DNA from: an uncultured Anaerolinea sp.
Lineage (GTDB): Bacteria > Chloroflexota > Anaerolineae > Anaerolineales > UBA4823
Reading direction: 5' to 3'
DNA: 62,131 bases
Assembly: GCA_964416275.1 (NCBI GenBank)
Contig: CAYQDU010000003.1
Location: 1-62,131 of the forward strand
Made by a program: the position numbers and the translations under genes. Below are positions 1,829-61,351 of the stretch, one piece after another (the stretch's first letter is position 1; each line of letters starts with the position of its first letter). A model generated the notes under the pieces. It saw only the letters and a list, made by a program, of their open reading frames with translations. It made no database searches and was not told the origin of the DNA.

Positions 1829-1829
1829 G

Positions 1830-24866: not shown

Positions 24867-24891
24867 AAAGCTGATGATAAGGAGGCTACGG

Positions 24892-25758
24892 ATGAAAAAA
24901 TTGCGATTTTGGGCTATGGCGCTGGTGATTGCCCTGTTCGCCCTGGGGCTGCTCAGCGCGATGAACAGCGTGGTGCAGGCTTCGACCGACGTGCGCCCGT
25001 TGGGGTTCACCCCCACCGAGCCGAAGGAGACCAAAGAACCGCCGCTGCCTACGGAGCCGCCTGCCACCGAGCCGCCCGAACCGACCGAGCCGCCCGAGCC
25101 AACCGAGCCGCCGGTCAAGCCCACCCGCATCAAGGAAACCGCCGTCGAGCCGCCCGAACGAGCTACGGCTACGCGCCTCCCCGGCGGATCGGGAATTTCC
25201 CCCACGCTGGGGCCGGGAACGCCGGGCGCTGGCCTGCCCACTGGCGCCCCTACTGGCGCGCCTACCGGGCTGCTTACCCCCGCCCCGCTGCCCACGCTGC
25301 CGCCTGTGCAGGTGAACAGCTGCACCGCCGGGGTGCGCTATATGGTCAAGTTTGTGTGCGGTCTGCAAGAGGAGCAGACTACCGGCGGCGAGCCGCCGGT
25401 CAAGCCGGGCAATTATGCCACCGCCCTGAACCTGCATAACTACACCGACGCGGCGGCTTGCGCCGCGGTGCGCCCGGCCCTGCACTACCTGCCCGGCGAG
25501 AACGCTCCCGCGCCGGCCAGGTGGCAAAGCCTCTCGTTGGCCCCGGCCAGCGACCTGGAAGTGGATTGCAACTACCTGTGGAAGATCACCGGAACCCGGC
25601 CCGGTTCGTTCCTCAAGGGTATGCTCGATGTGGCCCTGAGCCAGAAGCTGCCCCTGGCTGTGGTCTATACCGCCGAGATCACCGACCGCATGGGCCTGAC
25701 CGATAGCGGGGCGGGCATCAGCATTGACGTGGAGTATCTTACGCCCTTCCTGCCGTGA
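24892..25758 (+). CDS. Secreted protein: signal peptide, Pro/Thr/Glu-rich stalk and an uncharacterised C-terminal 'KFVCG...PGNYATALNLHN' domain
   Basis: AAGGAGG ribosome-binding site, MKKLRFWAMALVIALFALGLLSA signal, repeated PTEP/TEPPEP units, globular C-terminus with three Cys. Confidence 0.75.
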   Translation: MKKLRFWAMALVIALFALGLLSAMNSVVQASTDVRPLGFTPTEPKETKEPPLPTEPPATEPPEPTEPPEPTEPPVKPTRIKETAVEPPERATATRLPGGSGISPTLGPGTPGAGLPTGAPTGAPTGLLTPAPLPTLPPVQVNSCTAGVRYMVKFVCGLQEEQTTGGEPPVKPGNYATALNLHNYTDAAACAAVRPALHYLPGENAPAPARWQSLSLAPASDLEVDCNYLWKITGTRPGSFLKGMLDVALSQKLPLAVVYTAEITDRMGLTDSGAGISIDVEYLTPFLP

Positions 25759-25770: not shown

Positions 25771-25852
25771 GGTACTACCCCACTTAACCGTGGGATAGCC
25801 TATAACGCTTGAAGAGCGCCAGTCACCTCCACCCCGGTTGGGTGGGGGCTAC
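25771..25852. repeat. Inverted pair of R1-type REP-like hairpins between convergent genes
   Basis: GGTACTACCCCACTTAACCGTGGGATAG (25771-25798) faces GCCAGTCACCTCCACCCCGGTTGGGTGGGGGCTAC (25818-25852). Confidence 0.7.
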
Positions 25853-25898
25853 TATAGTTGAGGGAAGTTGGGCGGTGAAACCGCCCAACTTCCCTCAA

Positions 25899-27320
25899 CT
25901 ATTTTTTGATGAAGGCTTCGCCGCGGGCGAGCCATTGATCGTGGTCGGCGGGGGGGGCGGCGGAGGCCAGCAGGTCTTGGGTCTGCTGGCGCAGGCGGTC
26001 GTCCAGGCGCGGCTGGCCCTGGGCCTGCCATTTTTCCAGGCTCCAGCGCGGGGCCAGCTTGCTGTCGTAGGTGGCGGTTTTGTACAACTGCAGGGTCAGG
26101 TCGGCGTCGAGAAAATTGCCGCCGGGGCCGCGGCGAGCGATCTCGTCCAGCCCCAGGGATTCATCGTCGAGCGCAAAGCCCTGGGAAAAGCGCAGCGCCT
26201 GGGCGATGACCTCGTGCGAGTAGACCAGCAGGCTGGGCGAGAAGGCCTTGGAGCCTAAGGCCCCGCCTACAAAAGGCGCCAGCCCCGATTTTCCCAGCAG
26301 GCTGGTAAGGTGATTGATCCACAGCAGGCCTCCGGCGGCCAGGTCAGCGCCCCAGCCGCTGCCGCTGCCGCTGCCCGATGTTCCGGCGTGGGGCAGGTGG
26401 TAATAAGCCATCATCTCGGCGCAGGCCAGGTTAATCAGCAGGGTATAGGGGTCATAAAAATCCTGCATCGTGCGCATATCGAAGAAAGCCGGCAGGCTGC
26501 CCAGAACTACCGGCGTGCCGGGGCGGGCCAGTTGGGCCAGGGTCAGCCCGGCCAGTAGTTCGGCGTTCATCAAGGCCAGCGTGCCGGCGGCGGTGATGGG
26601 GGTAGACATGCCCGCCAGGCTGTAATTCGAGTAGATGAACGGCAGGCCGCGCTCGATGGTTTCCAGCATCTTATCGGCCGTGCCTTCATTGATAATCAGC
26701 GGGGTAATGGGGTTGAAATAGGGCAGGCAGAAGGGGCGGGCGGCCAGCTCGTCGCCCTGGCCGTATTCGAGCAAATCCAGCGCCCGGCCAAACAGCTTCT
26801 CGTTCGAGATCAGCAGCACCAGCGGCTTGGTGGTGTTGGCCGCCATCTCCAGCACGGCGTACAGGTCGGCGGTTTCGGGCGGGTAATCCTGGATCACGCC
26901 GATGGTCGAAACCACGTCGAAGTGGGGCAGGGCATGGGCCAGGCGCACCGAGTCGGCCATGTGCTGGCGGGCGAAGGGAACGAGGCTGTCGTCGGCCGGG
27001 TTTTGATAATACAGGTTGGTCACTCCGGCTCCAAAGCGAGTGCGGTCGTAGCCCAGGCGGAAGGCCAGCTCGCCAGTGCGGGCGTATAGATCCACCGCTT
27101 GCGGCGCGCTCTGGATCGCCCATTCTACCAGCCGGGGGTCAAGGGCAATGCGATCTTCCGACAGGAAGCTGGCCCCATCGGCGTCGGCGAAAATCTGGCG
27201 GGCGCGAGCCGAATCGACCCGCACCCCGGCCCGCACCAGGATTTCGAGCGATCTTTCATGCACGTAGCGAACCTGTTCGCCGGTTAGAAAGGTTAGATTG
27301 GGAATGGCTAAGCGATTCAT
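25899..27320 (-). CDS. MttB/MtgB-superfamily (trimethylamine methyltransferase family) corrinoid methyltransferase, pyrrolysine-free, paralog 1
   Basis: FLTGEQVRYVHERSLEILVRAGV, YFNPITPL, AGMSTPITAAGTLALMNAELLAGL..AQLARPGTPVV, IARRGPGGNFL. GAGGT ribosome-binding site before the ATG at 27320; no internal TAG. Confidence 0.88.
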   Translation of the reverse strand: MNRLAIPNLTFLTGEQVRYVHERSLEILVRAGVRVDSARARQIFADADGASFLSEDRIALDPRLVEWAIQSAPQAVDLYARTGELAFRLGYDRTRFGAGVTNLYYQNPADDSLVPFARQHMADSVRLAHALPHFDVVSTIGVIQDYPPETADLYAVLEMAANTTKPLVLLISNEKLFGRALDLLEYGQGDELAARPFCLPYFNPITPLIINEGTADKMLETIERGLPFIYSNYSLAGMSTPITAAGTLALMNAELLAGLTLAQLARPGTPVVLGSLPAFFDMRTMQDFYDPYTLLINLACAEMMAYYHLPHAGTSGSGSGSGWGADLAAGGLLWINHLTSLLGKSGLAPFVGGALGSKAFSPSLLVYSHEVIAQALRFSQGFALDDESLGLDEIARRGPGGNFLDADLTLQLYKTATYDSKLAPRWSLEKWQAQGQPRLDDRLRQQTQDLLASAAPPADHDQWLARGEAFIKK

Positions 27321-27411
27321 CGGACCTCGTTTCGTAGTTACGGGATGCGGATTTTCACGGATGGGCATGGATAGAGATTCTTGCACAGATCACAAAGGCC
27401 CCTAAGAACCA

Positions 27412-27448
27412 GGCAGCTCCCCACCTAAGCGGGGTGAAGTTGGCTGGC
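27412..27448 (-). repeat. R1 REP-like module
   Basis: Reverse complement GCCAGCCAACTTCACCCCGCTTAGGTGGGGAGCTGCC matches the copies at 4466, 25818, 33748 and 47113. Confidence 0.7.
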
Positions 27449-27517
27449 GAGCGAAGAAGGGAGCCGTACCTCAAGAATCACAAAGAGAAGAAAAGGCAAG
27501 AAATCTTCACCCGTGGC

Positions 27518-28699
27518 CTACCTTAATAATCTCAGGGCAGTTTCTGCGAGGAGGGCCGCGCCGATGGGCAGGCAGCGCTCGTCCAGGTCGAAATACGGGT
27601 TATGCAGGTGGCGCTCGTCGCCTTCGATGCGGCAGCCCAGGCTGAACATAGCGCCCGGCACGATCTCCGAGAAGCAGCCAAAGTCCTCGGCCCCCAGGCC
27701 GTTTTCGGGCGCTACCAGATGATCTGGCCCCAGCAGGTCGCTGACGGCCTGGCGGATGACCGCGCACACCCCGGCGTCGTTAATCATCGGTGGAGTGCCG
27801 ATCTCGATCTTGAGCTGGTAATCCCCGCCAAGAGTCTTGGCGATTTGCAGCGCCCGTTCGATCTCTTCATGGATGCGGGTCTGGACTTTGGGGTCCATGA
27901 ACCGGATCGTGCCGCTCAGTTCCACCCGGTCGGGAATGACGTTTTCGGTTTGCCCGCCGTGCAGGCTGCCGATCGTGACCACCGCCGGGGCGAACGGGTC
28001 CAGCCGGCGCGAGACGATGCCGTGCAAGGCCAGGATCACATGCCCGGCGATGTAGATCGGGTCGATGCCGACGTGCGGGCTGGCCCCGTGGCAGCCAGAG
28101 CCGTAGATGGTGGCAAAGAACGAATCGACCCCGCCGGAGGCCGGGCCGGATTCAATCTCAATATCACCCACCGCAATATGGGCGGCCACGTGCAGGGCAA
28201 TGATGCTGCGCACGCCCTCCAGCGCCCCGTCTTCGATCATGCGCGGCGCGCCGCTCACGCCTTCGGCGTCGGCCACTTCCTCCGATGGTTGGATCAGGAT
28301 GCGCACCACGCCGGGCAGAGGCTGGCCGCTGGCGCGCGGGTACTGGGCCAGCAGGGCCGCCGCCCCGCAGGCCATCGCCACGTGCGAATCGTGGCCGCAG
28401 GCGTGCATCAGGCCCGGCGTCTCGGAAGCATAGGGTACGTTGGCGGCCTCCAGGATCGGCAGGGCATCCATATCGGCCCGGATGGCGACGATGGGTACCC
28501 CCGGACCCGGCTCTGGCCCGATTTCAGCCACTACACCGGTACGCCCCACCCCGGTGCGCACCCGGCAGCCCAGGCTGCGTAAAATTTCGGCCGCCCGGGC
28601 CGCAGTTTTGATCTCTTGAAAGCCCAGCTCTGGGTGGCGGTGGATTTCGCGCCGCCAGGCGCTCAGTTGTTCGGATAGCAGTTTGGCCTGCGCTAACAT
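27518..28699 (-). CDS. M20D-family amidohydrolase (N-acyl-amino-acid hydrolase-like)
   Basis: WRREIHRHPELGFQE, AIRADMDALP, MHACGHDSH, QPSEE, ALHV, NVIPD, GAEDF, LHNPYFDLDE. GGAGG ribosome-binding site before the ATG at 28699. Confidence 0.9.
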   Translation of the reverse strand: MLAQAKLLSEQLSAWRREIHRHPELGFQEIKTAARAAEILRSLGCRVRTGVGRTGVVAEIGPEPGPGVPIVAIRADMDALPILEAANVPYASETPGLMHACGHDSHVAMACGAAALLAQYPRASGQPLPGVVRILIQPSEEVADAEGVSGAPRMIEDGALEGVRSIIALHVAAHIAVGDIEIESGPASGGVDSFFATIYGSGCHGASPHVGIDPIYIAGHVILALHGIVSRRLDPFAPAVVTIGSLHGGQTENVIPDRVELSGTIRFMDPKVQTRIHEEIERALQIAKTLGGDYQLKIEIGTPPMINDAGVCAVIRQAVSDLLGPDHLVAPENGLGAEDFGCFSEIVPGAMFSLGCRIEGDERHLHNPYFDLDERCLPIGAALLAETALRLLR

Positions 28700-28701
28700 G
28701 G

Positions 28702-30147
28702 TTAGACCTCCAATTCTCGCCTGGCGGCTGCCAGAATTTCGTCCAGGGCCTGCTCTTGGGCCGGCTCCAGCGGGGGAACCCGATGCTGGGCCAGGATGCG
28801 CTCGGCCTCGGCCTGGGCTTTCTCGGCCATGCCCTGCCGCCCGCCCAGCTCCCAACCGTCCCACCCGCTGCGCTCAGCCAGTTTGGTCAGGTTGATCTCG
28901 CCGGCCCGCAAGAAGCGGCTGGTATGGCGCTGGGTGAGGAAGTTGCGGTCGGTCTGCATGGCTGCGGCGATGACCTCCACCGCCAGGCTCTCGGCGTTGG
29001 CGGCGAAACCGCGCTGCAAGCGGCGCACGCTGGCGGCGATTTCATTATCGCACACCATCTGGGCGTAAGAACCCATCACCCCGGCCTCCATCTCGCCGAT
29101 GCCAGATAGCTCGTCGGCCCCAGCCAGGGCGGGGATGGCGGCGTTTAAGGCCCGCTCGAAGCCGTTCTGGATGTCCAGGGTGTGGGCGTTGGTAGAAAAT
29201 CCGTAGACGTTGACCGGCAGGCCGTAGCGATGGGCGATCTGCACCGTGCCGGCCGAGGCCAGGCCCAGCTCGACCCCGCCCCACACCGAATAGCCGGTGC
29301 GGGGTTCCATCATCGCCAGCCGCCCGCAGTAGACGATGGGCAGCCCAGGCCGGGCCAGTTCGGCCAGGACGATGGCGGCCAGCACCTCGGCGTTTTGTTG
29401 GGCGATGGCCCCGGCGATGGACAGCGGCGCAGTGGTTCCGGCGGTGGGGCAGGGCAGGGGGGTGAAGGCCACCCCGGCGCGGGCAATCGCCAGGATGGCC
29501 GCCGCGCCGTCGTCGGGGAATGTCAGTGGGCTGACCGGCGAGACGGCCAGGGTTAACACCTCCGGCGGCGGGCCGATCACCTCAGCCATGCGCAGGACAT
29601 AACCCACCTCAGCGGCGGTCTGCACCCCCGGCCCCTGGAGCGGTTTGGTGGTATTGGATAGGGCGTGGCGGTACATCGCCAGCGACATCAACGGCCCCGG
29701 CGCATCGATGGGGGTGAAGAAGGGCGTGATGGTGGTGGCCGCCTCCAGGGCGTCGAGCAGGCGGGTGCTGTCGCGCACATCTTGCACGGTGGCCCGGCGC
29801 TGCTGGCCCAGCCGATGATCGTAGATGTTGGGCGCGCCGCCCAGGTTGTGCCAATGCTGGCTGCCGTCGCCCAGGGTTTTGGTTTGCCCGCCGCGGCCGC
29901 GCAGGCAGGTCTGTTTGCCAGCCTTTTGCAGGCAGGCCTCCACCAGTTCCGGGGGCAGGAGCAGGCGCTCGCTCTGGCTGCGGTTGGCGGCTTCGGCCGC
30001 CCCTGTACGCAGCTTGCCCCCGGCCTCCAGGATCAGCGCCCGCCCCTCCGGGTGGCTCAAGATCACGCCGGTTTCGGCCAGGATGCGCAAGCTGGCCTGG
30101 TGCAGGGCTTCGACTTCTTCGGGGGTCAGCACGGTCAGGTGAGTCAT
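28702..30147 (-). CDS. MttB-superfamily corrinoid methyltransferase, pyrrolysine-free, paralog 2
   Basis: VLTPEEVEALHQASLRILAETGV, SPVSPL, AGTTAPLSIAGAIAQQNAEVLA, ARPGLPIVY, DIQNGFE, LAGADELSGIG, QMVCDNE. Confidence 0.9.
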   Translation of the reverse strand: MTHLTVLTPEEVEALHQASLRILAETGVILSHPEGRALILEAGGKLRTGAAEAANRSQSERLLLPPELVEACLQKAGKQTCLRGRGGQTKTLGDGSQHWHNLGGAPNIYDHRLGQQRRATVQDVRDSTRLLDALEAATTITPFFTPIDAPGPLMSLAMYRHALSNTTKPLQGPGVQTAAEVGYVLRMAEVIGPPPEVLTLAVSPVSPLTFPDDGAAAILAIARAGVAFTPLPCPTAGTTAPLSIAGAIAQQNAEVLAAIVLAELARPGLPIVYCGRLAMMEPRTGYSVWGGVELGLASAGTVQIAHRYGLPVNVYGFSTNAHTLDIQNGFERALNAAIPALAGADELSGIGEMEAGVMGSYAQMVCDNEIAASVRRLQRGFAANAESLAVEVIAAAMQTDRNFLTQRHTSRFLRAGEINLTKLAERSGWDGWELGGRQGMAEKAQAEAERILAQHRVPPLEPAQEQALDEILAAARRELEV

Positions 30148-30162
30148 AGCGGGTTCCTCCTT

Positions 30163-32007
30163 CTATCGTTCAGTCTTTTTCACTGAAGGCGGGAAATCTT
30201 CCAGGACGCGCCCCAGGTAGGCTGCCCGGCGCAGTTCGTGATCGACCACATTTTCGATCTTCAGAAAGCTATGCCCCTCGTCTTCATATACGATCAGTTC
30301 GACCGGTTTGCCCAGGTGTTCCAGGATTTCTTTGGCGGCGATGGACTCGCTCGCCGGGCAGCGCGGGTCGTTGGCCCCGCCGATGAGCTGCACCGGGGCC
30401 TGGATGCGATCCAGGAAGAAGAACGGCGAGCGCTCGCGCCACCGGTCGGCGTTTTCAACCGGGTCGCCCATGTTTTCGAGGTCCCAGTGGCGCAAGTCCT
30501 GGCGCGAAGCGGCGTGCGAAGTGAACCAGTTGATGAACGGCACGACGGCCGATCCGACCGCAAATTTTTCCGGGTATTGGGTCAGGCAGCTCAGGGTGAG
30601 AAAGCCGCCGTGGCTGCGCCCGGTGACGCCGATGCGCTGCGGGTCGGCCAGGCCGTTTTGCGCCAGGTAATCGGCCCCGGCGGCCACGTCCAGGGTATCG
30701 CCGCGGCCCATCTCATAGCGGTTGGCGTACTGCCAGGCCCGCCCATAGCCGGTGGAGCCGCGATAGTTGGGAGCCAGCACCACCCAGCCCCGGCTGGCGC
30801 AGTGGGCCATGAAAGGATACCACAGGTATTGGAACAGCCAGTTCGGCCCGCCGTGGATGACGATCACCGCAGCGGGGGAAGGGGAGAGGGTGCGAGGCAG
30901 GTAGAGCAGGGCTGGAACCTGGCTGCCGTCGGGCGCATCGTACCAGATATGCCGCGGCAGGATGAAATCTGCGGGCGAGAGGCCGGGCGGCAGCGAGTGG
31001 GTCAGGGGGATGAACTGCCCGCTTGCCAGGTCAAGCTGCCACAGGTCGTCGGGGCGGCATGGGCTGTCGAAGATCAACACAATCCGCCGCCCGTCGGGGG
31101 TGAAGCGCGGGGTGAAGTGCAGCCCCGGCTCTACCTGGAAGCGCTGCCAACCGGGCGCGCCCAGGCGGTGCAGCCCCAGCCAGGTATCTGGCCCCTGGCT
31201 TACAACGCACACCAGGCTGCCCCCATCCGGCGACCAATCTGGCTGGCCCAGGTCGCAGCCTTCGATCTCCAGCCATTCGATTGGCCCGCTTGCTGCCTCC
31301 AGCAGGCCAATCTGGTAGCGCCCGGTGCGGTCAGACGAGAACGCCAGGCGCGCCCCGTCTGGCGACCAGGCTGCTTCTTTAGCGTTGAGCGGCTGCCCAT
31401 CTTGCTGGAGGGCGCAAACTGAACCGGCCGCCTGGCCGGCGGTGGTTAGCGGAATCAGATAGGTGACGTAATCCTGGCCACGGCTTTCGGCGGTTACGGC
31501 CAGCCGGGTGCCATCCGGCGACCAGGTTAGCATCGAGTGCGGGCCGCCCAGATCGCAGACCTTGCGCAGCGCGCCGCCCTCGGCCGGGAGCAGGTAGGTC
31601 TCGAATTTACCATCCCGGTCGGCCAGAATCGCCAGATGTTTGCCATCGGGCGACCAGCTTGTATTGGGTTGGAGGGCGAAAGGGGTAGCGGGGGTCAGGT
31701 TGGTATGGGCCTGAGCGGCAAAGTCCAGCCGCCACAGGTCGAACGACTCGCTCCCATCTAGGTCTACCAGGTACGTCAGGCGAGACCCATCGGGGCTGTA
31801 GCGCGGCCCGAATTTGCCGCCTGGTCCCCCGGTGAGCTGGCAGATTTGCTGCGGGTCGGCCAGCCGTAATTCGTAGATTTCCCACTGGCCGCTGCGGTTC
31901 CACGCAAAGGCGGCTTTCTGCCCATCGGGCGAGAGATCGAAGCCGGTATAGGCTTCGACATAGGGGACGCGCAGCAGGCTTTCCAGGTCTAGAACGCGGT
32001 TTTCCAT
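30163..32007 (-). CDS. S9-family serine peptidase (acylaminoacyl/dipeptidyl peptidase-like) with beta-propeller
   Basis: Repeated WSPDG blades; IHGGP, NYRGSTGYG, nucleophile GRSHGG, NDPRCP (Asp), DEGH (His). No signal peptide. Confidence 0.92.
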   Translation of the reverse strand: MENRVLDLESLLRVPYVEAYTGFDLSPDGQKAAFAWNRSGQWEIYELRLADPQQICQLTGGPGGKFGPRYSPDGSRLTYLVDLDGSESFDLWRLDFAAQAHTNLTPATPFALQPNTSWSPDGKHLAILADRDGKFETYLLPAEGGALRKVCDLGGPHSMLTWSPDGTRLAVTAESRGQDYVTYLIPLTTAGQAAGSVCALQQDGQPLNAKEAAWSPDGARLAFSSDRTGRYQIGLLEAASGPIEWLEIEGCDLGQPDWSPDGGSLVCVVSQGPDTWLGLHRLGAPGWQRFQVEPGLHFTPRFTPDGRRIVLIFDSPCRPDDLWQLDLASGQFIPLTHSLPPGLSPADFILPRHIWYDAPDGSQVPALLYLPRTLSPSPAAVIVIHGGPNWLFQYLWYPFMAHCASRGWVVLAPNYRGSTGYGRAWQYANRYEMGRGDTLDVAAGADYLAQNGLADPQRIGVTGRSHGGFLTLSCLTQYPEKFAVGSAVVPFINWFTSHAASRQDLRHWDLENMGDPVENADRWRERSPFFFLDRIQAPVQLIGGANDPRCPASESIAAKEILEHLGKPVELIVYEDEGHSFLKIENVVDHELRRAAYLGRVLEDFPPSVKKTER

Positions 32008-32097
32008 GGTTGTTTTCTCTGCGCCTGAAATGCGGCGCGAGAGCGTTGGGCCGGCGCAGCCGGCCCAACGCCCATGTGCATCATCGTTGCCCGGGGC

Positions 32098-33558
32098 CTA
32101 CGGCCCGGTTTCCGGCAGGCGATCCATTCCGGCGGCCTGGGCCAGCCGTTCGACCATGCTCACCAGCTCGGCCCGCTGGGCGGCGGGCATCTGGGGCGGC
32201 TGGTAGGCCTGCAGCAGAGCTGCCACGCGGTCCCTGGCGCGGGCAAAGGTGTCGGTGCAGCCTTCTTCCTGCCAGGCGCGCACCGAGCCGCGATCCAGCA
32301 CCGGCGAGGGCAGGTACTGCTCTTGAGAGAACAACTGGCGGGTGAGCTTCTGCTTGAGAAATTCGCCTTTGAAGGCAATGCCGCTGAACATTTCCAGGGC
32401 CAGGGTGGGTGTAGGGGTGCGCATGCCGGCCAGCAGACGTTTGGTCATGGCGATGGCTTCGGCGTCGATCACCAGCTTTTCGACGCTGAAGCAGGCCAGG
32501 AAGTCGAGCATGCCGGGGCCAGAAATCATGTTGATCCCGGCCAGGGCGCCCACCAGGGCGGTCATGCCACTTTCCAGGCCGGCCTGGGCGTCCACCAGTT
32601 TGGCGTCGGACGCGCCCAGGTAGGTGTGGGTGGGCAGGCCCAGGGCTTTGCCCACCTGGGCGTAGGCGGCGTCGATCATGGCTGTCTCGATGGCGCCCAT
32701 GGGGGTGGTGCCTTTGCGCATGTCGAAGATGGCCGGCGCGCCGCCCCACACGATGGGCGCGCCGGGGTTGGCAAGCTGGTGGATCACCACACCGCTCATA
32801 CACTCAGCGGCGTGCTGCACTACTGAGCCGACCAGCGTCACCGGGGCGGCGGCCCCGGCCAGCGGCATCGACACCATCTGAGCCGGTACGCCGGCCCGGG
32901 CCAGTTCGATCAGGTTATCGGCCCCGAAATCGCTCCAGATCAGCGGTGGGGAAGGGCAGACGTCGAACACCGCCTGGGGTTTTTCGGCCAGCGCCCGCCG
33001 CCCGCCGGCGAAGATCGCCAGCATGTCGATCATGGTTTGCAGGGTGCGGATCGAGAAGGCCCCGGTGATGATGGGCTTGTTCGAATACAGCAGCGTCAGG
33101 TACAGGCGATACAGGTCGCCGATGGCCTTGGGAATTTCATTGCACACCACCGCCGTGGATTGAGCGTCCAACTGCGGCAGCATCTCGGTGACTTTGATGA
33201 TCTTGACCAGGTCTTGGGTGTAGGCGGGGTGATGCTCCAGCGTATCAGGGTCCAGCACATGCACGCCCGATGAGCCGGGGTCGAAGGCCACCGCGTCGCC
33301 GCCATAATGGACTACCGCCTCGCCGGCGCGGTTATAGAGATCGAACTGGCCCGGCGCGGTGGACATGGCCTGGCGGGCCATACCCTCGGGGATATAGGCG
33401 ATCTCGTTGGTTTCGTCAATTCTGGCCCCGGCCTCGGCCAGCAAAGCCCGCGCGCTGGGCGACTGAACTTTTATGCCGTGTTCGTCCATCAACTGGAAGG
33501 CTTCTTCCAGAATGCGCTGCACCAGTTCGGGTTCGAGCAATCGAATTTGCGGTTGCAT
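32098..33558 (-). CDS. MttB-superfamily corrinoid methyltransferase, pyrrolysine-free, paralog 3
   Basis: SPPL, AGAAAPVTLVGSVVQHAAE, NPGAPIVWGG, GASDAKLVDAQAGLESGM, AGINMISGPGML, EKLVIDAE. Confidence 0.92.
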   Translation of the reverse strand: MQPQIRLLEPELVQRILEEAFQLMDEHGIKVQSPSARALLAEAGARIDETNEIAYIPEGMARQAMSTAPGQFDLYNRAGEAVVHYGGDAVAFDPGSSGVHVLDPDTLEHHPAYTQDLVKIIKVTEMLPQLDAQSTAVVCNEIPKAIGDLYRLYLTLLYSNKPIITGAFSIRTLQTMIDMLAIFAGGRRALAEKPQAVFDVCPSPPLIWSDFGADNLIELARAGVPAQMVSMPLAGAAAPVTLVGSVVQHAAECMSGVVIHQLANPGAPIVWGGAPAIFDMRKGTTPMGAIETAMIDAAYAQVGKALGLPTHTYLGASDAKLVDAQAGLESGMTALVGALAGINMISGPGMLDFLACFSVEKLVIDAEAIAMTKRLLAGMRTPTPTLALEMFSGIAFKGEFLKQKLTRQLFSQEQYLPSPVLDRGSVRAWQEEGCTDTFARARDRVAALLQAYQPPQMPAAQRAELVSMVERLAQAAGMDRLPETGP

Positions 33559-33607
33559 AAGTTTTCTCTTTCTGTTTTTGCTGCTTGCAGCGGCGAAGCC
33601 GGCGTCG

Positions 33608-33784
33608 CTCCATTAAACCGTGGAACAGGCATGGCGCTTTTCGAGCGCCTTCCAAAGGAGATGTTATGTGGGTTTTGGCGCCCTTTGTGCGACAAAACCC
33701 ACGCTTAACGCTCTTTCCAGGCGAACGAAGCTCGCCAAGCGCAGCTTGCCAGTCACCTCCGCCACGATTGCGTGGGGAGCTGCC
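33608..33784 (+). repeat. R2 element (copy A) followed by an R1 module, inside the MttB cluster
   Basis: CTCCATTAAACCGTGGAACAGGCATGGCGC...GCGCC...GGGTTTTGGCGC-CCTTTGT-GCGACAAAACCC...CTCTTTCCAGGCG is near-identical to 46987-47115. Confidence 0.85.
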
Positions 33785-33814
33785 GCGAAGCCAGCTGCAA
33801 GCAGCAAAAGATTT

Positions 33815-35266
33815 TTACGCGCCTTCGGCGGCGGCGATGATGCGGGCTAACTCGGCCGAAACGGCCGGGTCCAGCAGGTCGGGCTGGTGGGTTTCCATGA
33901 TCTGACGGGCTTTGGCGGTGGCCCACTCGACGGCCCCATCCTGTTTTTCTTCCCATTCATTGTAGGGGCGGCGATCCATGTACTGCGGCAGGAACATCTC
34001 GCGCATGTGGCGCAGAGTGTGCTTCTGCTTGAGGAAGTTGCCGCCGGGGCCAACGGTGTTGATCACGTCCAGGGCCAGGGTTTCGTCATCTACCACAATG
34101 CCTTGCAGCATTTTGTGGACGATGCTATAGATTTCGCAGTCCATCAGCATCTCGGCATACGACCAGATGCGGCTGCCGTGCAGGAACCCGGCCCCCAGCA
34201 GCATGTCCGACATGACGATGCAGGCCATGAAGGTGGATAGGCTGTTATCGACGCCGGCCTGCCAGTTGGGCTGTTTGGCCCCGGTGGCAAACGAGCCCAT
34301 CGAAAGCGGGATGTTGTAGTAGTCGGACAGTACGTTGGTGGCGGCCCCAAACAGGAAATCTTCCGGGCCGCCGCCGGTGTAGGCCCCGCTGCGCGGGTCG
34401 GAGGCGGTCTGGGCGGCGGCGTAGAACACCGGCGCGCCAGGGTAAGCCATCTGGATCAGGGCGGTAGCGGCCACCACCTCGGCGTTGCCCACCACCAGGT
34501 TGCCTGCCAGGGTGGCCGGGCCGGTGGTGAGCATGGAGGCCATGGTCATAAAGCCCACCGGCACGCCGGCCTCGGCCCCGATCAGGGCCGCCTCCAGGCT
34601 GCCGCCATCGTGGCCCAGGGGCGGGGCGGTGCATTGCATCAGCGACAGCACCGGGCGTTTGCGAAGCTGCTCGCGCCCGCCAGCCACGGCGGCTGCCATC
34701 TCGATGGCGGCCAGCGCTTCGGCCTCCGAGTACACGCTTTCGGTCTGGACGTGCTTGGTGGAGTGATCCCACACGGCTTTCAGCTCGTGCAGGCCGCGGG
34801 TGTGGGCGGGCTTATCCTGGGCCGAAACGGCCACCCAGTGAAAGCCGATCTCTTCCTGATAATCGGCCACTTTGGCGATGTCGGCCACGTCCTGCAGTTT
34901 GGTGCGCCGCCGCTCGCCGCTGTACAGGTCGATCACTTCCACGCCGCAGCCGTCGGTGCCGAGGAAAACATGGTTGCCGTCCAGCGGCAAGTCTTGGGAT
35001 GGGTCGCGCGCCGCCAGGGTGTAGGCGGGCGGAGCTTTCTTCAGGGCGGCTTCGATCAGGTGGCCGGGGGCTTTGACGATGGAGGTATCCCAATCGACGT
35101 TGGCGCCGTTGGCGGCCCAGATTTCCAGCGCCCGTTTGGAAGGGAAGCGCACGCCGGTCTTTTCGATCACCGCCAGGGTGGCGGTATGCAGGCGCTCGAC
35201 CTCGGCGTGGGTCAGGATGTTCAGACCCAGCTTGGGGTTGGTGATGGATTTGATTTTGCGCGCCAT
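33815..35266 (-). CDS. MttB-superfamily corrinoid methyltransferase, pyrrolysine-free, paralog 4
   Basis: ILTHAEVERLHTATLAVIEKTGV, APPL, TGPATLAGNLVVGNAEV, QMAYPGAPVFY, AKQPNWQAGVD, EMLMDCE, VGPGGNFL. Confidence 0.92.
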   Translation of the reverse strand: MARKIKSITNPKLGLNILTHAEVERLHTATLAVIEKTGVRFPSKRALEIWAANGANVDWDTSIVKAPGHLIEAALKKAPPAYTLAARDPSQDLPLDGNHVFLGTDGCGVEVIDLYSGERRRTKLQDVADIAKVADYQEEIGFHWVAVSAQDKPAHTRGLHELKAVWDHSTKHVQTESVYSEAEALAAIEMAAAVAGGREQLRKRPVLSLMQCTAPPLGHDGGSLEAALIGAEAGVPVGFMTMASMLTTGPATLAGNLVVGNAEVVAATALIQMAYPGAPVFYAAAQTASDPRSGAYTGGGPEDFLFGAATNVLSDYYNIPLSMGSFATGAKQPNWQAGVDNSLSTFMACIVMSDMLLGAGFLHGSRIWSYAEMLMDCEIYSIVHKMLQGIVVDDETLALDVINTVGPGGNFLKQKHTLRHMREMFLPQYMDRRPYNEWEEKQDGAVEWATAKARQIMETHQPDLLDPAVSAELARIIAAAEGA

Positions 35267-35278
35267 GCGTTTGTCCTT

Positions 35279-35926
35279 CTATTTGCCCAGAAGTTGTTTG
35301 GCCACCGCCACGGCGCCGATGGCGTCTTCGCTGTAGCCGTCGGCGCCGATCTCTTTGACCCAGTCGCGGGTCACCGGCGCGCCGCCCACCATCACCTTCA
35401 CCCGCTGGCGCAGGCCCATGTCTTCCAGGGCTTCCACCACGTCGCGCTGGCGCACCATGGTGGTGGTCAGCAGGGCGCTCACGCCGATGATATCGGCGTC
35501 TACCTCGCGGGCTTTTTCGACCAGCTTTTCCACCGGCACGTCTACGCCCAGGTCGTAGACCTGGAAGCCGGCCGCCGAGAGCATGGTGCCGACCAGGGTC
35601 TTGCCGATGTCGTGGATGTCGCCGTGGATTGTGCCGATCACCACCCGGCCCAACATCTCGCGGGCTGTTCCCAGGCGGGCCATCTCTGGCTCAAGGGCGC
35701 TGACGGCGGTCTTCATGGCTTCGCCGGCCATGACCAATTCAGGCAGGAAGGCGTTGCCGCACGAGAACTCGTTGCCCACGTGGTTTACGCCCACCACGAA
35801 GCCCTGGTTGATGGCCTCCAGCGGGTCGATGCCCTGGGCGATGGCCTGTTGGGCCAGGCTTTCGGCGGCTTCCGAGTCGCCGTCGATGATGCTTTGGGCC
35901 ATGGCTTGGAAAAGTTCAGCGGTCAT
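35279..35926 (-). CDS. Corrinoid (cobalamin)-binding protein, MttC/MtgC-like
   Basis: B12-binding_2 cap (GFVVGVNHVGNEF...FLPELVMAGEAMK) plus the DxHxxG motif GDIHDIGKTLV, SALLTTT and KVMVGGAPV. AAGGAG ribosome-binding site before the ATG at 35926. Confidence 0.93.
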   Translation of the reverse strand: MTAELFQAMAQSIIDGDSEAAESLAQQAIAQGIDPLEAINQGFVVGVNHVGNEFSCGNAFLPELVMAGEAMKTAVSALEPEMARLGTAREMLGRVVIGTIHGDIHDIGKTLVGTMLSAAGFQVYDLGVDVPVEKLVEKAREVDADIIGVSALLTTTMVRQRDVVEALEDMGLRQRVKVMVGGAPVTRDWVKEIGADGYSEDAIGAVAVAKQLLGK

Positions 35927-35970
35927 AGATGATCTCCTTAACAAGATTGGGATGGTGCGGTCGGTTGTAA

Positions 35971-36720
35971 TCACAGGACGGATGAAATCTGGGCTTCGCG
36001 CTCGGCCAGTTGCCTGGCCGGGATGTTGAGGAAGTCCACCAGTTCGTGGGCCAGGTTGTGGATGTGTTCGATCACGCCCAGGGCGGCCCGGCGGCTGTTA
36101 TGGGCGGCCAGGGCGTCGACGATGGCCTGGTGTTCGTCGTATTCGCGGTTCAGGCTGGTCTCCAGCAGTTCGGGATGGCGGAACATATACTCATACAGAC
36201 GCCAGTCGGGAAACTGATTGGAGGCCATCTCATAATGTTTGCTCAACAGGGCGTTGCCGCTGGCTTCGGCGATCAGCAGATGGAAGCGCTTGTTGAGCAG
36301 GCGCTGGCGCGACATATCGGCCAGGGTCATCAGGTCGCGGGTCTGCCAGACCAGGCTTTGCAGGGTTTCCAGTTGGGCGGGGCTGGCGTTGAGGGCCGCC
36401 AGGCGGGCAGCGGCGCTTTCCAGCACCAGGCGCAGGGTGTAGGCGTCGATAATCTCTTCTGGGCTTGGCTCTGGCACGCGCACGCCGCGATAGGGGACGC
36501 GCTCGGCCAGCCCGGCCGATACCAGCAGATCGAGGGCTTCGCGCACCGGGGTCTGGCTGACGCCGAGCTGAGAGGAGATGTCTTCCTGGCGCAGCCATGC
36601 GCCAGGGGCGTATTGCCCGGCTACGATGCGCTGGTGCAGGAAGTCGAACACGCTGTCTTTGAGTGACTTCTTGGGGACGAAGTCGGCCGGGGGGCTGGAG
36701 TCTGCGGGCAGGTTGGACAT
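35971..36720 (-). CDS. GntR/FadR-family transcriptional regulator (FCD domain)
   Basis: YAPGAWLRQEDISSQLGVSQTPVREALDLLVSAGL wHTH; LNKRFHLLIAEASGN and EHQAIVDAL of the FCD domain. Confidence 0.92.
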   Translation of the reverse strand: MSNLPADSSPPADFVPKKSLKDSVFDFLHQRIVAGQYAPGAWLRQEDISSQLGVSQTPVREALDLLVSAGLAERVPYRGVRVPEPSPEEIIDAYTLRLVLESAAARLAALNASPAQLETLQSLVWQTRDLMTLADMSRQRLLNKRFHLLIAEASGNALLSKHYEMASNQFPDWRLYEYMFRHPELLETSLNREYDEHQAIVDALAAHNSRRAALGVIEHIHNLAHELVDFLNIPARQLAEREAQISSVL

Positions 36721-36736
36721 ACCGGCTCCATTGATT

Positions 36737-36749
36737 ATGTATTATACAT
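36737..36749. promoter_or_regulatory. Candidate GntR/FadR operator (ATGTAT-T-ATACAT palindrome)
   Basis: Perfect 6-1-6 inverted repeat in an AT-rich patch between the divergent gntR and MFS genes. Confidence 0.55.
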
Positions 36750-36848
36750 TATATATAATCTGGCGAGGTGATTATATCATAAGCCGCAGGACTCAAACCC
36801 CCAATTGCCATTCGTTTAGTACAATACACTACCATAGGAGACCCTCTC

Positions 36849-38078
36849 ATGAGCCAACCCCAACCCATATCTCCCCTGCCCGGCGGCGAAGCGCCGAAAA
36901 AGGACGCTGTTCCAGGCTACGCCTGGGTGATCCTGGCGGTGGCGTTTATCGCCAGCGTGGCCGCGCCGCTCAACCAGTTCAAAGTATCGCCGGTGATGCC
37001 GGTTTTGATGCAAGTGTTTAACCTGAGCCTGAGCAGCGCCGGGATGTTGATGTCGGTGTTTGCCGTCACCGGGTTCGTCCTGGCCCTGCCGGCCGGGCTG
37101 ATCTTGCAGCGCCTGGGGTTGAAGATCACCGGGCTGCTGGCGATGGGCTGCCTGGTGATTGGGTCGCTGGTGGGCGGGCTGTCGGCTTCGGCCGGGCTGA
37201 TGTTGTTCAGCCGGATCATCGAGGGGGTCGGGATGGGGTTGATCGCAGTCGTTGCCCCGGCGGCCATTGCCATGTGGTTCCCGCCCCACAAACAGGGTGC
37301 GCCGATGGGCCTGTGGGCCACCTGGGTGCCGGTGGGGGCCATCCTCATGTTCGTCCTGGCCCCGGCGATGGCCGACGCGTTTGGCTGGCAGTCGATCTGG
37401 TGGTTTGGGGCGGGGTTTGCCGCCCTGGCCTTCGGGCTGGTGCTGGTCTTCATGCGCACGCCCCCGGCCCTGGAAGCCGGGCGGTCGGCTGGCCTGCCGG
37501 TGGAGCCGCCGGATATGAAGCAAGCCCTGAGGAACCGGAATATGTGGCTGTTGGCTGCCCTGTTTGGGCTGTTCAACCTGGGCACCATGCCCATGAGCAC
37601 CTATTACCCCACCTTCCTCAACACAGTCCGCAATTATGACATGGCAAGCGCTTCCTTCGTCGCCAGCCTTACGATGATGACCATCCTCCTTTCGGCCCCC
37701 CTGGCGGGGGCGCTGCTGGATCGCCTGGGGTCGCGCCGGGCGCTGCTCACCTGGCCGTTCCTGGGGGCGGCCGTGATGATGCTGCTGCCGTTCACCGTCA
37801 CCGGGGCGCTGATCCCGCTGCTGCTGATCCTGATGGGAATCAACTCTGGCGCGGTCCCCACAGCCACGTTCTCGGCCGTGCCGGAAATCATGCGCAAACC
37901 GGAGCTGGCCGGGCTGGGCATGGGGGCGGTGAGCCTGGGGCAGAATTTGGGGATGTTCCTGGGGCCGATCCTGTTTGGGGCGCTGGCCGAGCGCCTGGGC
38001 TGGGCCGCAGCCGGGTTTGCCATGGCGCCGATTCTGCTGGCCGGGCTGTTTATCGGGCGCATGATCCGGGTGCGCTGA
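36849..38078 (+). CDS. MFS transporter (CynX/NimT-like)
   Basis: About 12 hydrophobic helices; ILQRLGLK and LLDRLGSRR loop motifs; WFPPHKQGAPMGLW. Confidence 0.88.
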   Translation: MSQPQPISPLPGGEAPKKDAVPGYAWVILAVAFIASVAAPLNQFKVSPVMPVLMQVFNLSLSSAGMLMSVFAVTGFVLALPAGLILQRLGLKITGLLAMGCLVIGSLVGGLSASAGLMLFSRIIEGVGMGLIAVVAPAAIAMWFPPHKQGAPMGLWATWVPVGAILMFVLAPAMADAFGWQSIWWFGAGFAALAFGLVLVFMRTPPALEAGRSAGLPVEPPDMKQALRNRNMWLLAALFGLFNLGTMPMSTYYPTFLNTVRNYDMASASFVASLTMMTILLSAPLAGALLDRLGSRRALLTWPFLGAAVMMLLPFTVTGALIPLLLILMGINSGAVPTATFSAVPEIMRKPELAGLGMGAVSLGQNLGMFLGPILFGALAERLGWAAAGFAMAPILLAGLFIGRMIRVR

Positions 38079-38147: not shown

Positions 38148-39275
38148 TCAAATGTACTGCCGGGCGGCGGGGACGACCTGCGCGTACAGGTGCAGCAACT
38201 CATCACGCCAGCGCTCGCGGCTGTAGCAGCGCCGCACGCGGTCCAGGGCGGCCTGGCCGTATTGCTGGCGCTCGGTGGGCGATTGCAGCAGGCGCAGCAG
38301 GGCGGCGGCCAGCTCGGCCGGCTGGTGGGGGGCCACCAGCAAACCGGCGTTTTCTTCCAATAAGAAGGGGCTTTCGCCCACCCGGGTGGCTACGACCGGC
38401 AGGCCGCTTGCCATGGCTTCCAGCACCGTCACCGGCGTGCCTTCGATGTTCGATGAATTGGCGTATACATCGGCGCAAGCCATCAACCGGCGGGCATCGT
38501 CGCGGTGGCCCAGCAGGAAGATGTGATCGTGCATTTGCAGCCCATCGATCTGGGCTTGCAGCGTGGGCTGCAAATCGCCGCGCCCGGCGATGACCAGGGC
38601 GCTGGGGGGTGCTTTCGACTGGATGCGGGCGTAGGCTTCGATCAGGTCGTGAAAGCTTTTTTGTTCTACCAGCCGGCCAACCGATAAGACCATCAGCCGG
38701 GCAGGATCGCCCATTAACTGGCGGCGCAGGGCCTGGCGCTCGCCGGCCTCCAGGATGGGCAGCGGTTCGATGGCGTTGGGAATGACCACCAGGGGCGCTT
38801 TTGGCCCCAACCGGGCGCGGGCAAACTCTCCGACCATGCGGCCGTTTGCCATGATCACATTTGCCAGATAGCGCATGCTCAGCCGTTCCAGCAGCTCGCG
38901 CCGGCGGGTGTAGGTCTTGTACTCGAAATCGGCGTTGCGCAGTGAGGCGATGACTGGCGTGCCGCTCAAGACCCCGGCGGCCGGGCCAATGATGTTGGCA
39001 TAGGTCAGGTAAGTGTGCAGCAGGTCGAACTTTTCGGCCCGCAGAAAGCGGGTCAGCCGGGCAAAGCTGCCTGGGCTAAACAGGACGTCGAACGGGAAGG
39101 AGACCACCGGCGCACCCAGTTCGTTCAACCGGGCCGGGACGGTCGAATCGGATGAATCGCTCAGGTCGATTACGGTGATCTCGATGCCCAGCGGGCGCAG
39201 AGTCTCCACCAGGAAGATCTGCATCCGCTGGGCGCCGCCCCAATACAGGGTGTCAAGCATCTGGGCAATTCGCAT
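38148..39275 (-). CDS. GT4 (GT-B fold) glycosyltransferase
   Basis: LYWGGAQR, DLLHTYL, VIPNAI, SVGRLVEQKS, DVYANSSNIEGTPVTVLEAMASGLPVVAT (E-x7-E). Confidence 0.92.
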   Translation of the reverse strand: MRIAQMLDTLYWGGAQRMQIFLVETLRPLGIEITVIDLSDSSDSTVPARLNELGAPVVSFPFDVLFSPGSFARLTRFLRAEKFDLLHTYLTYANIIGPAAGVLSGTPVIASLRNADFEYKTYTRRRELLERLSMRYLANVIMANGRMVGEFARARLGPKAPLVVIPNAIEPLPILEAGERQALRRQLMGDPARLMVLSVGRLVEQKSFHDLIEAYARIQSKAPPSALVIAGRGDLQPTLQAQIDGLQMHDHIFLLGHRDDARRLMACADVYANSSNIEGTPVTVLEAMASGLPVVATRVGESPFLLEENAGLLVAPHQPAELAAALLRLLQSPTERQQYGQAALDRVRRCYSRERWRDELLHLYAQVVPAARQYI

Positions 39276-39288
39276 AGGTTTACCTGGC

Positions 39289-45090
<5,802 letters not shown>

Positions 45091-45144
45091 GTTAACTCCT
45101 CATCAACAATCAAACCGGTATAGTTTAGCCGCCTGGACCCGCTT

Positions 45145-46614: not shown

Positions 46615-46689
46615 AGTCTCCCTGGCAAGATGCCCCATGCAAATAGATTGAAGCGCCTGGAACCGCTAAAATCTGGCGAAGTCTGACCG

Positions 46690-48262: not shown

Positions 48263-48360
48263 GTCAAACGCTTGTGCTAAAAAAGCAGTAGCTTGGTGGG
48301 GTGGTGCTTCGTGGGCGCGGCTCACGAAAGACCGGCGCATCAATGACGATACGGACCCCT

Positions 48361-49557: not shown

Positions 49558-49573
49558 TCATGAGGAAACTGCA

Positions 49574-50179
49574 ATGACGCATACCATTCCCATCGGCCGC
49601 TTGCTGCGGGCAGGTACGGCCGGCTTTGTGGTTGGCTGCCGGGTGTCTCAGTTGGATGATCCATCCTTTGGCGCGCTGGTAATCGCGCCGGTCAGCCGCA
49701 GTTACCAGATTTATGGCCTCATTTACGATATTCATATCGACGACGATGGGCTTGTGCGCCAGTTGGTGACCGCCGACCGGGTGGACGACGACATCATCAA
49801 CGATAATCGCCAGAACCGCAACGTGCCGTTGGAGATCAGCGTGCTTTCGGTGGGCTACCGCTTGGATGGGCGCGTCTATCACCTGCTGCCGCCCCGCCCG
49901 CCCCTCAGCCTGGATGTGATCTGCCTGTGCAGCGACGATGAAATGTGTGAATTTACTGGCGCGGGGCGCTTTGGCTATTTTCGCCACCTGCTGCGTGCCG
50001 CCGACCTGCCCCTGGGCGAGCTGCTGGCCGCCCACATCCAGCAGGTGCAGGATTGCCAGGCTCAACACGGCCGCCCCGCCTGGACTCAGGCTGCTGTGCA
50101 AGAGCTGATTACCTTGCTGCGCGACGATTACCCCCGCCTGATGGACGTGCTGCGAGGCATCGGAGAAGTTTCCGATTGA
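49574..50179 (+). CDS. Stand-alone HAS-barrel-like protein (no ATPase domain)
   Basis: IGRLLRAGTAGFVVGC...PSFGALV...IYGLIYDI resembles the N-terminal barrel of the adjacent HerA (IGYIVGGS...QEGGFVVV...FYGLITDL); no Walker motifs. Confidence 0.6.
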   Translation: MTHTIPIGRLLRAGTAGFVVGCRVSQLDDPSFGALVIAPVSRSYQIYGLIYDIHIDDDGLVRQLVTADRVDDDIINDNRQNRNVPLEISVLSVGYRLDGRVYHLLPPRPPLSLDVICLCSDDEMCEFTGAGRFGYFRHLLRAADLPLGELLAAHIQQVQDCQAQHGRPAWTQAAVQELITLLRDDYPRLMDVLRGIGEVSD

Positions 50180-61164: not shown

Positions 61165-61185
61165 AGTAGTTTCACCTCCTTCCAA

Positions 61186-61325: not shown

Positions 61326-61351
61326 GCGAGTTATTCACTTGTTTGGGCGAA

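Follow-up and report, generated by a model that had tools for sequence, protein, structure and literature searches.

What is the role of a peptidase and an amidohydrolase among the genes of four MttB-family methyltransferases? This question is raised by a contig of an uncultured Anaerolinea sp. (CAYQDU010000003.1, assembly GCA_964416275.1), of which 62,131 nt of the forward strand were analyzed; this whole stretch is referred to as the window, and its homologs assign the contig to the Chloroflexota, Anaerolineae/Anaerolineales. At 25,899-38,078, a minus-strand run encodes, from 5' to 3', a GntR/FCD regulator, a corrinoid protein, MttB4, MttB3, an S9 peptidase, MttB2, an M20 amidohydrolase and MttB1, as found in the open reading frame (ORF) listing and by profile searches. 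The reading favored here, to which a probability of about one half is given, is that the operon is under GntR control and lets Anaerolineae catabolize methylammonium compounds that arrive amide-linked, and that these compounds are imported, hydrolyzed at the amide bond and demethylated in a corrinoid-dependent manner.

The MttB superfamily contains thousands of uncharacterized members without pyrrolysine (Pyl). Only six substrates are known for the superfamily, namely trimethylamine (TMA), glycine betaine, proline betaine, carnitine, gamma-butyrobetaine and phosphocholine/choline, and the want of active-site rules is the main obstacle to interpreting metagenomes (PMC13080624). The multiplicity of MttBs alone is not new, since strain DCMF provides a precedent for multi-MttB clusters (PMC9768040). 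What is new here is the conserved embedding of S9, M20 and peptide-type ATP-binding cassette (ABC) transporter genes, together with the pocket signatures of the MttBs. A literature search on the operon itself, on MttB in Anaerolineae, on MttB with peptidases or amidohydrolases and on trimethyllysine turned up no description of this operon.

Conservation of the linkage between MttB and hydrolase genes

A preliminary description of this DNA had given the gene order and the tight spacing around mttB2, and both are borne out, with nine genes at the coordinates in Table 1. The gap between S9 and mttB2 is 15 nt and includes AAGGAGG as a ribosome-binding site, while mttB2 and M20 are separated by 2 nt, with the M20 ATG at 28699; M20 is probably translationally coupled to mttB2. 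The earlier remark that one corrinoid protein is shared by the four paralogs also holds, as its gene is the sole corrinoid-protein gene found across the 62 kb.

When species-representative genomes were scanned with an alignment of mttB2, 80 related loci were obtained, all from Anaerolineae-type metagenome-assembled genomes (MAGs), in which mttB2 is 63-78% identical. Synteny was called by tblastn of the window proteins against these loci (E <= 1e-10, at least 40% of the query covered) and by de novo clustering of their ORFs; the denominators include only loci with enough flanking sequence, and the counts ignore kinship among the MAGs. M20 lies immediately downstream of mttB2 in 56 of 74 loci and S9 immediately upstream in 46 of 67. 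Orthologs of mttB3 (40/54) and mttB4 (37/54) are also found upstream, an mttB1 ortholog follows downstream in 15 of 69 loci, and a GntR/FCD gene heads the operon in 22. The preliminary description had staked its proposed coupling of hydrolases and MttBs on their conservation side by side, and the M20 and S9 counts favor that coupling.

The recurrent operon can be written as GntR, corrinoid protein, mttB4, mttB3, an optional block of one SBP_bac_5 binding protein, two Opp/Dpp permeases and two oligo_HPY ATPases, S9, mttB2, M20 and then either a pterin-binding protein or mttB1. This arrangement exceeds chance, because dozens of species have it despite different flanks and a protein identity of only 44-78%. 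The outer neighbors of the operon in the window (a giant DUF11 protein, a C25 peptidase, a major facilitator superfamily (MFS) transporter, a GT4 glycosyltransferase and a nonribosomal peptide synthetase (NRPS)) are not common to the 80 loci; the conserved block is thus exactly the run from GntR to mttB1.

The linkage was also approached from the hydrolases. All three S9 orthologs on long contigs lie with MttB and M20, and two of three M20 orthologs are linked. In addition, a metagenome scan with the back-translated motifs MHACGHD and RADMDALP was considered as a reciprocal synteny test and set aside, since these motifs are common to M20D enzymes and the matches were mostly paralogs of 35-45% identity; it was kept as a negative control. 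Among the matches listed, 79 of 80 generic M20D loci, 32-59% identical to the window M20, have no MttB neighbor, and the sole locus with one is the closest match (61% identity).

Related operons contain further components. In many loci (about 30-40), an insert of ~6 kb between mttB3 and S9 encodes a complete Dpp/Opp-type ABC importer, of which the binding protein is closest to AppA, DppA and NikA. The presence of this importer correlates with that of S9 (counts 25/13/3/9, odds ratio 5.8, p 0.02, kinship ignored). Directly after M20, 25 loci encode a pterin-binding protein of 290 aa (PF00809; NF005719 at 290 bits against a cutoff of 259), which by these matches is a methyl-tetrahydrofolate:corrinoid methyltransferase (MT2), and nine loci encode a RACo-type corrinoid activase. 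Taken together, the orthologous operons encode a full system of MttB-type methyltransferase (MT1), corrinoid protein, MT2 and activase, along with an importer and two hydrolases. MT2 and mttB1 hold the same slot after M20 and never occur together in one locus (0/20/11/19, Fisher p 0.0016, kinship ignored); among loci L004-L083, examples are MT2 at L076:12767-13639 and mttB1 at L015:12599-14011. MttB1, being mutually exclusive with MT2, might have a role other than that of an MT1.

The strongest sign of a functional link comes from loci in which M20 is replaced. A C45/AAT Ntn-hydrolase (PF03417) stands beside mttB2 in place of the absent M20 at L032:11419-12486 and L033:10971-12095. Creatininase-family amidases (PF02633) are found between S9 and M20 at L082:19152-19973 and on the opposite strand at L032:8898-9827(-), and a PRK-Amidohydro_3 fusion and an APC permease are further members of the L033 cluster. 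The recurrent exchange of M20 for non-homologous amidases suggests that amide hydrolysis belongs to the MttB2 pathway.

The modules can also be separated. In locus L164, an S9/mttB2/M20 module with Dpp genes stands apart from a module of corrinoid protein, mttB4 and mttB3, which suggests that only some of the MttB paralogs are chemically tied to the hydrolases. Judged from its gene context, MttB2 is the paralog most tightly linked to them. A different insertion is observed at L165:4425-9966, where a PotD-type ABC transporter (SBP_bac_1/8, TOBE_2 ATPase), followed by a fifth MttB type that is 29% identical to MttB3, lies between mttB3 and S9; this suggests modular cassettes of a transporter plus an MttB.

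The two hydrolases and the pockets of the MttB paralogs

The M20 protein is of the M20D type (TIGR01891 at 338.8 bits against a cutoff of 153.75), with M20 catalytic and dimerization domains. The metal motif MHACGHD and the EE and His columns are invariant in 19 orthologs. Its closest structures are ILL2 (1xmb), YxeP (1ysj), a Staphylococcus aureus protein (4ewt) and a Corynebacterium N-acyl-Gln aminoacylase (6slf); these M20D enzymes cleave N-acyl amino acids or unusual dipeptides. By these features, M20 is assigned to the class of N-acyl-amino-acid amidohydrolases/dipeptidases and is predicted to be cytoplasmic. The S9 protein combines a PD40 beta-propeller with a catalytic domain, in which the triad motifs are intact by inspection (GRSHGG for the nucleophile, GANDP for Asp and EGH for His). 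Its closest structures are 8wt1, 5l8s, 3azo, the A. pernix acylamino-acid-releasing enzyme 1ve6 and 4hxe, a group of acylamino-acid-releasing enzymes and aminopeptidases related to them; the best matches score only 110-144 bits, mostly over the catalytic domain, and S9 appears to be acylaminoacyl-peptidase-like (S9C-like). Inspection of the N-termini revealed a signal peptide on neither protein, so their substrates are probably imported first and then processed in the cytoplasm.

S9C and M20D enzymes typically take N-blocked substrates, as acylaminoacyl peptidase and aminoacylase do, the former releasing the blocked residue and the latter de-blocking it. In mammals (APEH/ACY1), and with the acylaminoacyl peptidases of archaea, an S9C enzyme and an M20 aminoacylase form a pair that degrades N-blocked peptides. 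The S9 and M20 proteins of the window, known here from their sequences, may resemble this logic, which is offered as a lead by analogy: here also a beta-propeller peptidase adjoins an N-acyl-amino-acid amidohydrolase. Unlike APEH/ACY1, the pair is operonic with corrinoid methyltransferases, and its M20 member is of the M20D (ILR1/YxeP-like) and not of the M20A type.

The mutual divergence of the four MttBs, already reported in the preliminary description, is confirmed: they share 25-30% pairwise identity, and each has a full-length match to PF06253 (194-309 bits, gathering score 25 bits) that covers about 460-475 of the 500 model positions. Direct sequence comparison with characterized enzymes covered D. 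hafniense MtgB and M. barkeri MttB, to which the four are 27-33% identical, MttB4 being the best match to both (33% and 30%); the E. limosum enzymes are known from their published description. The absence of pyrrolysine also stands, as none of the four genes has an internal stop and a sense codon occupies the Pyl position, encoding Ser in MttB1 and MttB2 and Ala in MttB3 and MttB4. The TIGR02369 equivalog for the Pyl-dependent TMA methyltransferase is not reached (220.5, 319.7, 373.9 and 428.9 bits against 525), and the NCBIfam equivalog cutoffs are reached by none of the four, so that a curated specificity cannot be assigned.

In MtgB, glycine betaine is held by Y97 and F356, through cation-pi interaction, and by R312 and H348 at its carboxylate (Picking et al., PMC13080624). 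The acidic group of the substrate is bound by R312, a residue conserved in every member whose function is known, i.e., MtgB, MtcB, MtpB, MtyB and MthB, and the substrates of these enzymes are all acidic quaternary amines (PMC13080624). The four window MttBs and 13-26 orthologs of each were aligned with the MtgB and MttB sequences taken from PDB alignments, and the character of the pockets was read from residue identities alone. None of the four keeps the MtgB tetrad, and the Arg equivalent to R312 is replaced by A, N, H and S in MttB1, MttB2, MttB3 and MttB4, respectively (Table 1). When the L317 column is included (Y97/R312/L317/H348/F356), MttB2 reads G/N/S/S/G and MttB4 reads G/S/A/L/S. The residue sets are invariant within each ortholog group, with the exception of one MttB1 ortholog that has C for A at the R312 column; in MttB2 they are invariant in 26 orthologs. 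Because each set is conserved within its own group, the four MttBs are, as far as residue identities indicate, four distinct and conserved specificities, none of them a glycine-betaine-type site. The loss of R312 would fit substrates with a masked or absent carboxylate.

Individual paralogs have further characteristics. MttB2 matches 2477 database proteins at E <= 1e-20; the 120 listed are 67-93% identical, and their names, where given, are from Chloroflexota/Anaerolineales only. MttB1 has a conserved Gly/Ser-rich loop (PHAGTSGSGxGWGxDL) at the site of the Pyl loop in Pyl-MttB. Near the Pyl site, MttB3 is the paralog most similar in local sequence to Pyl-MttB, and Ala316 (GCG) takes the Pyl position; its gene contains an Rfam PYLIS_3 match at 32514-32613 (-) with 41.3 bits against a gathering threshold of 38. 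A functional pyrrolysine insertion element was rejected, since the UAG of the model is replaced by GCG and most of its base pairs are broken; the match therefore reflects coding-sequence homology to Pyl-mttB and confirms that mttB3 is free of pyrrolysine.

The corrinoid protein consists of a B12-binding_2 cap and a B12-binding Rossmann domain, with DIHDIG as the DxHxxG motif. It scores 232.5 bits with TIGR02370 (cutoff 215.3) and remains below the MtgC cutoffs in the NCBIfam search.

Operon boundaries, regulation and neighboring genes

Table 1. Features of the operon and its surroundings in the window; residues are those aligned with Y97/R312/H348/F356 of MtgB.
Feature	Position	Strand	Profile match or evidence	Residues	Remark
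DUF11-repeat ORF, 5283 aa	6085-21936	+	DUF11 repeats (at least 25), CARDB/bMG10-like domains		largely DUF11 repeats
C25 peptidase ORF, 1063 aa	21675-24866	+	gingipain-type C25 peptidase domain		domain is C-terminal
Hairpin, 20 bp, G+C-rich	25856..25900		terminator-like scan and sequence		directly after mttB1 stop
mttB1	25899-27320	-	PF06253, 194 bits	V/A/P/S	most divergent of the paralogs
M20 amidohydrolase	27518-28699	-	TIGR01891, PF01546, PF07687		
mttB2	28702-30147	-	PF06253, 219 bits	G/N/S/G	between the two hydrolases
S9 peptidase	30163-32007	-	PF00326, PF07676		N-terminal PD40 beta-propeller
mttB3	32098-33558	-	PF06253, 309 bits	S/H/S/L	
mttB4	33815-35266	-	PF06253, 286 bits	G/S/L/S	
Corrinoid protein	35279-35974	-	PF02310/PF02607, TIGR02370		
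GntR/FCD (FadR-type) regulator	35971-36720	-	PF00392, PF07729		first operon gene
AT-rich operator/promoter element (putative)	36733..36760				between gntR and MFS gene
MFS transporter	36849-38078	+	PF07690		divergent
NRPS, GT4 and Wzx-like genes	38148-46638	-	A-T-C-A-T-TE, 1933 aa (NRPS)		bimodular NRPS beside the other two
NurA nuclease and HerA (DUF87) helicase	48301-52036	+			same orientation, ~750-nt gap between called ORFs
L10_leader	61178-61339	-	Rfam, 47.3 against 44 bits		ordinary

The hairpin after mttB1 is the probable end of the operon and possibly a bidirectional terminator that is common to mttB1 and the convergent plus-strand ORF at 24874-25758. Two start sites differ from the longest reading frames. 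The mttB1 ORF reaches 27386 (25899-27386, minus strand), and its probable start is at 27320, as judged from the 473 aa called on the same-species contig L002 (471 aa on L001). The corrinoid protein probably starts at 35926, which gives 215 aa, the same length as in its relatives.

The 256-nt gap between mttB4 and mttB3 (33559-33814) has a very stable predicted fold (-119.6 kcal/mol, z -6.0) and is edged by a 16-bp inverted repeat (TTTTGCTGCTTGCAGC...GCTGCAAGCAGCAAAA). It has the 13-mer GGAGGTGACTGGC and ~45 nt of similarity in common with the region after mttB1 (25818-25830), and in relatives such as L047 and L050 the gap is merely ~10-15 nt. It looks like an inserted element resembling a miniature inverted-repeat transposable element or a repetitive extragenic palindrome, or like a structured intercistronic RNA.

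The AT-rich element between gntR and the MFS gene contains the palindrome ATGTATTATACAT at 36737-36749 and overlaps a sigma-70-like promoter of the MFS gene. In related species, although their proteins have diverged, gntR is preceded by members of this motif family (TTATATATAATGTATTATACAT / ATAATATATAATATATAATATAT). It is plausible that this element is a GntR operator and that the MFS gene is co-regulated in this genome. At Rfam gathering thresholds, no cobalamin riboswitch or other regulatory RNA was detected in the operon. The divergent MFS gene of the preliminary description is present, but it is not conserved beside the operon: no homolog was found in any of the 80 related loci at the tblastn thresholds, and relatives carry Dpp/Opp ABC, PotD-type ABC or APC permeases instead. 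A conserved role in the system is thus unsupported, and its membership is uncertain.

Upstream in the window, phosphoglucomutase, endonuclease V and LOG-like genes (1244-4255) are located ~20 kb from the operon. In L166 and L170, the operon adjoins endonuclease V and a LOG-like gene, and in L166 only also phosphoglucomutase. In the window these three genes are parted from the operon by the DUF11-repeat ORF and the C25 peptidase, which looks like an insertion. The latter two probably encode a surface protein and the cognate protease that processes or sorts it. As members of the MttB system, the giant DUF11 protein, the C25 peptidase, the NRPS and the GT4 glycosyltransferase were rejected, because they are not conserved beside the operon; nor is the Wzx-like polysaccharide biosynthesis protein that neighbors the NRPS. 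At the far end of the window, the L10_leader match closely follows the ribosomal protein L1 gene (61395-62114) and precedes the next minus-strand ORF, 60628-61185.

A proposed pathway and its alternatives

In the pathway proposed here, candidate substrates would be small peptides, dipeptide-like molecules and N-acyl-amino-acid conjugates. Import would be carried out by the operon-encoded Dpp/Opp-type ABC transporter in most relatives and, in this genome, by the divergent MFS protein or a transporter encoded elsewhere. In the cytoplasm, the acylaminoacyl-peptidase-like S9 enzyme and the M20D amidohydrolase/dipeptidase would cut the amide bonds, presumably before demethylation. The MttBs, and MttB2 above all, would then act as N-demethylases that hand methyl groups to the single corrinoid protein, while MttB1, MttB3 and MttB4 (the last two from the module with the corrinoid protein) may serve further substrates or methylation states. 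Finally, the methyl group would be passed on to tetrahydrofolate by the pterin-binding MT2, and the RACo-type activase would repair oxidized corrinoid.

The preliminary description had interpreted the locus as a pathway that frees N-methylated amino acids from peptides or N-acyl conjugates and then demethylates them, stepwise or across several substrates. Its core, the coupling of hydrolases and MttBs, is supported by the synteny, the amidase substitutions, the peptide-type importer and the lost carboxylate-binding Arg; the MFS transporter does not belong to the conserved part. N-methylated amino acids as the substrates, the order of the steps and a division of labor among the paralogs would all fit this pathway as possible details.

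Known systems resemble it in part. D. hafniense MtgB/MtgC/MtgA with RamA and the E. limosum MtcB, MtpB, MtyB and MthB systems also use non-Pyl MT1s and a dedicated B12-binding corrinoid protein, along with a pterin-binding MT2 and a reductive activase, which are found here in orthologous loci. Unlike those systems, there are four divergent MT1s per corrinoid protein here, none with Y97/R312/H348/F356; MT2 and activase are missing from the window; and genes of a peptidase and an amidohydrolase, joined in relatives by those of a peptide-type ABC importer, lie within the operon, whereas the known systems have betaine transporters. With Pyl-MttB of M. barkeri (TIGR02369), the paralogs share the fold family and 27-31% identity, and the coding similarity of mttB3 runs right across the PYLIS region; in contrast to Pyl-MttB, UAG is absent, the Pyl position is Ala or Ser, and the scores (220-429 bits) are below the 525-bit cutoff. 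In the glycine-betaine-induced cluster of 'Ca. Formimonas warabiya' DCMF, several MT1s are likewise grouped with a corrinoid protein, an MT2 and transporters, along with a gene of hydrolase type (N-methylhydantoinase/oxoprolinase); it has been proposed that the paralogs of this cluster demethylate one substrate step by step (PMC9768040). DCMF differs in being a Firmicute with BCCT-type betaine transporters and a free-betaine substrate, and its cluster has neither an S9/M20 pair nor a peptide ABC importer.

Several observations weigh against the proposed pathway. No MT2, RACo or substrate-binding protein homolog is found anywhere in the 62-kb window; MT2 and a RACo-type activase must be encoded elsewhere in this genome. 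SBP_bac_5 proteins also take non-peptide ligands (nickel, opines and sugars), and the associated transporters vary between Dpp ABC, PotD-type ABC, APC, lactate-permease-like and MFS proteins. Eleven loci have mttB3-mttB2-M20 without S9, 15 of 74 loci have no M20 in the stretch searched, and in the close relatives L166 and L165 S9 and M20 occur without mttB2 in between. In addition, L010, L049 and L079 contain orphan mttB2 orthologs, and the orphan of L079 and the unlinked M20 of L169 are located in the same MAG (JADBJJ01) on different contigs with unrelated neighbors, so that the linkage is not obligatory. Such orphans and the unlinked M20 would be expected if the genes were co-localized without chemical coupling. 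The MttBs would then act on free small methylamines or betaines as a multi-substrate island with one corrinoid protein, and S9, M20 and the peptide ABC importer would serve general peptide scavenging under the same regulator. The modular make-up favors this explanation, as S9-mttB2-M20 with Dpp stands alone in L164 and the corrinoid protein-mttB4-mttB3 module also occurs without S9, and so do the heterogeneous transporters, including the PotD-type ABC beside the fifth MttB type, and the multi-MttB clusters of strain DCMF that serve free glycine betaine and dimethylglycine (PMC9768040). It deserves to be taken seriously but is considered somewhat unlikely, as mttB2 lies between the hydrolases with gaps of 2 and 15 nt in an arrangement kept in dozens of species, the linkage is limited to the orthologous M20 clade and does not extend to M20D in general, and M20 is replaced by unrelated amidases and not merely lost. 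Furthermore, the acid-binding Arg of the free-betaine enzymes is absent from all four MttBs, and a BCCT or OpuA-type betaine transporter is absent from the cluster.

The same synteny would be produced by the reverse order of events, in which the MttBs demethylate imported peptides or conjugates at N-terminal or side-chain amines, possibly quaternary, and thereby let S9 and M20 cut otherwise resistant bonds. The small pocket residues (G/N/S/S/G in MttB2, others similar) and the lost Arg are compatible with larger substrates without a free carboxylate, and mttB4-mttB3 precede S9 in the gene order. To our knowledge, no MttB-family enzyme acts on a peptide, which counts against this order, and with S9C and M20D enzymes that typically accept N-blocked substrates, prior deprotection is not obviously needed; this explanation is regarded as quite unlikely. 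Very improbable is the view that the MttBs draw on another class of methyl donor (such as S-methyl or O-methyl compounds, halomethanes or methylated metalloids) or have no methyltransferase function, with the hydrolases serving unrelated chemistry. The paralogs are indeed distant from MtgB and MttB and without all known substrate-binding residues. A corrinoid-dependent chloromethane methyltransferase system is described in the literature, and DCMF, which has 82 MttB-superfamily genes, degrades dichloromethane via the mec cassette (PMC9768040); the two dehalogenating enzymes may or may not belong to the MttB family. Against this stand the full-length Pfam MttB matches and the cognate corrinoid protein with MT2 and RACo in orthologous operons, which is the exact architecture of amine-demethylating systems; moreover, all characterized non-Pyl MttB members listed in PMC13080624 use quaternary amines.

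The favored reading thus remains that of amide-linked methylammonium compounds which are first hydrolyzed and then demethylated. A more far-reaching possibility, which is rather unlikely, is an anaerobic salvage of methyl groups from peptide-bound or peptide-derived amines, such as methyl-lysines, alpha-N-methylated N-termini and betainyl or N-acyl conjugates from necromass, by new MttB subfamilies that would recognize amide-linked substrates without a free carboxylate. If true, this would be the first corrinoid-dependent demethylation route for protein-derived methylamines and a new substrate class for MttB, in one of the most abundant lineages of sediment, soil and sludge.

For the MttB superfamily, four ortholog groups now stand out, each with its own invariant pocket residues. 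Their strongly conserved surroundings, in which amidases, a peptide-type importer, an MT2 and an activase are encoded, focus the search for substrates on methylammonium compounds in amide linkage. Sediments, soils and digesters harbor Anaerolineae in very high abundance, and a dedicated route for such methyl groups into the folate pool of these bacteria would matter for the anaerobic turnover of carbon and nitrogen as well as for the competition with methylotrophic methanogens.

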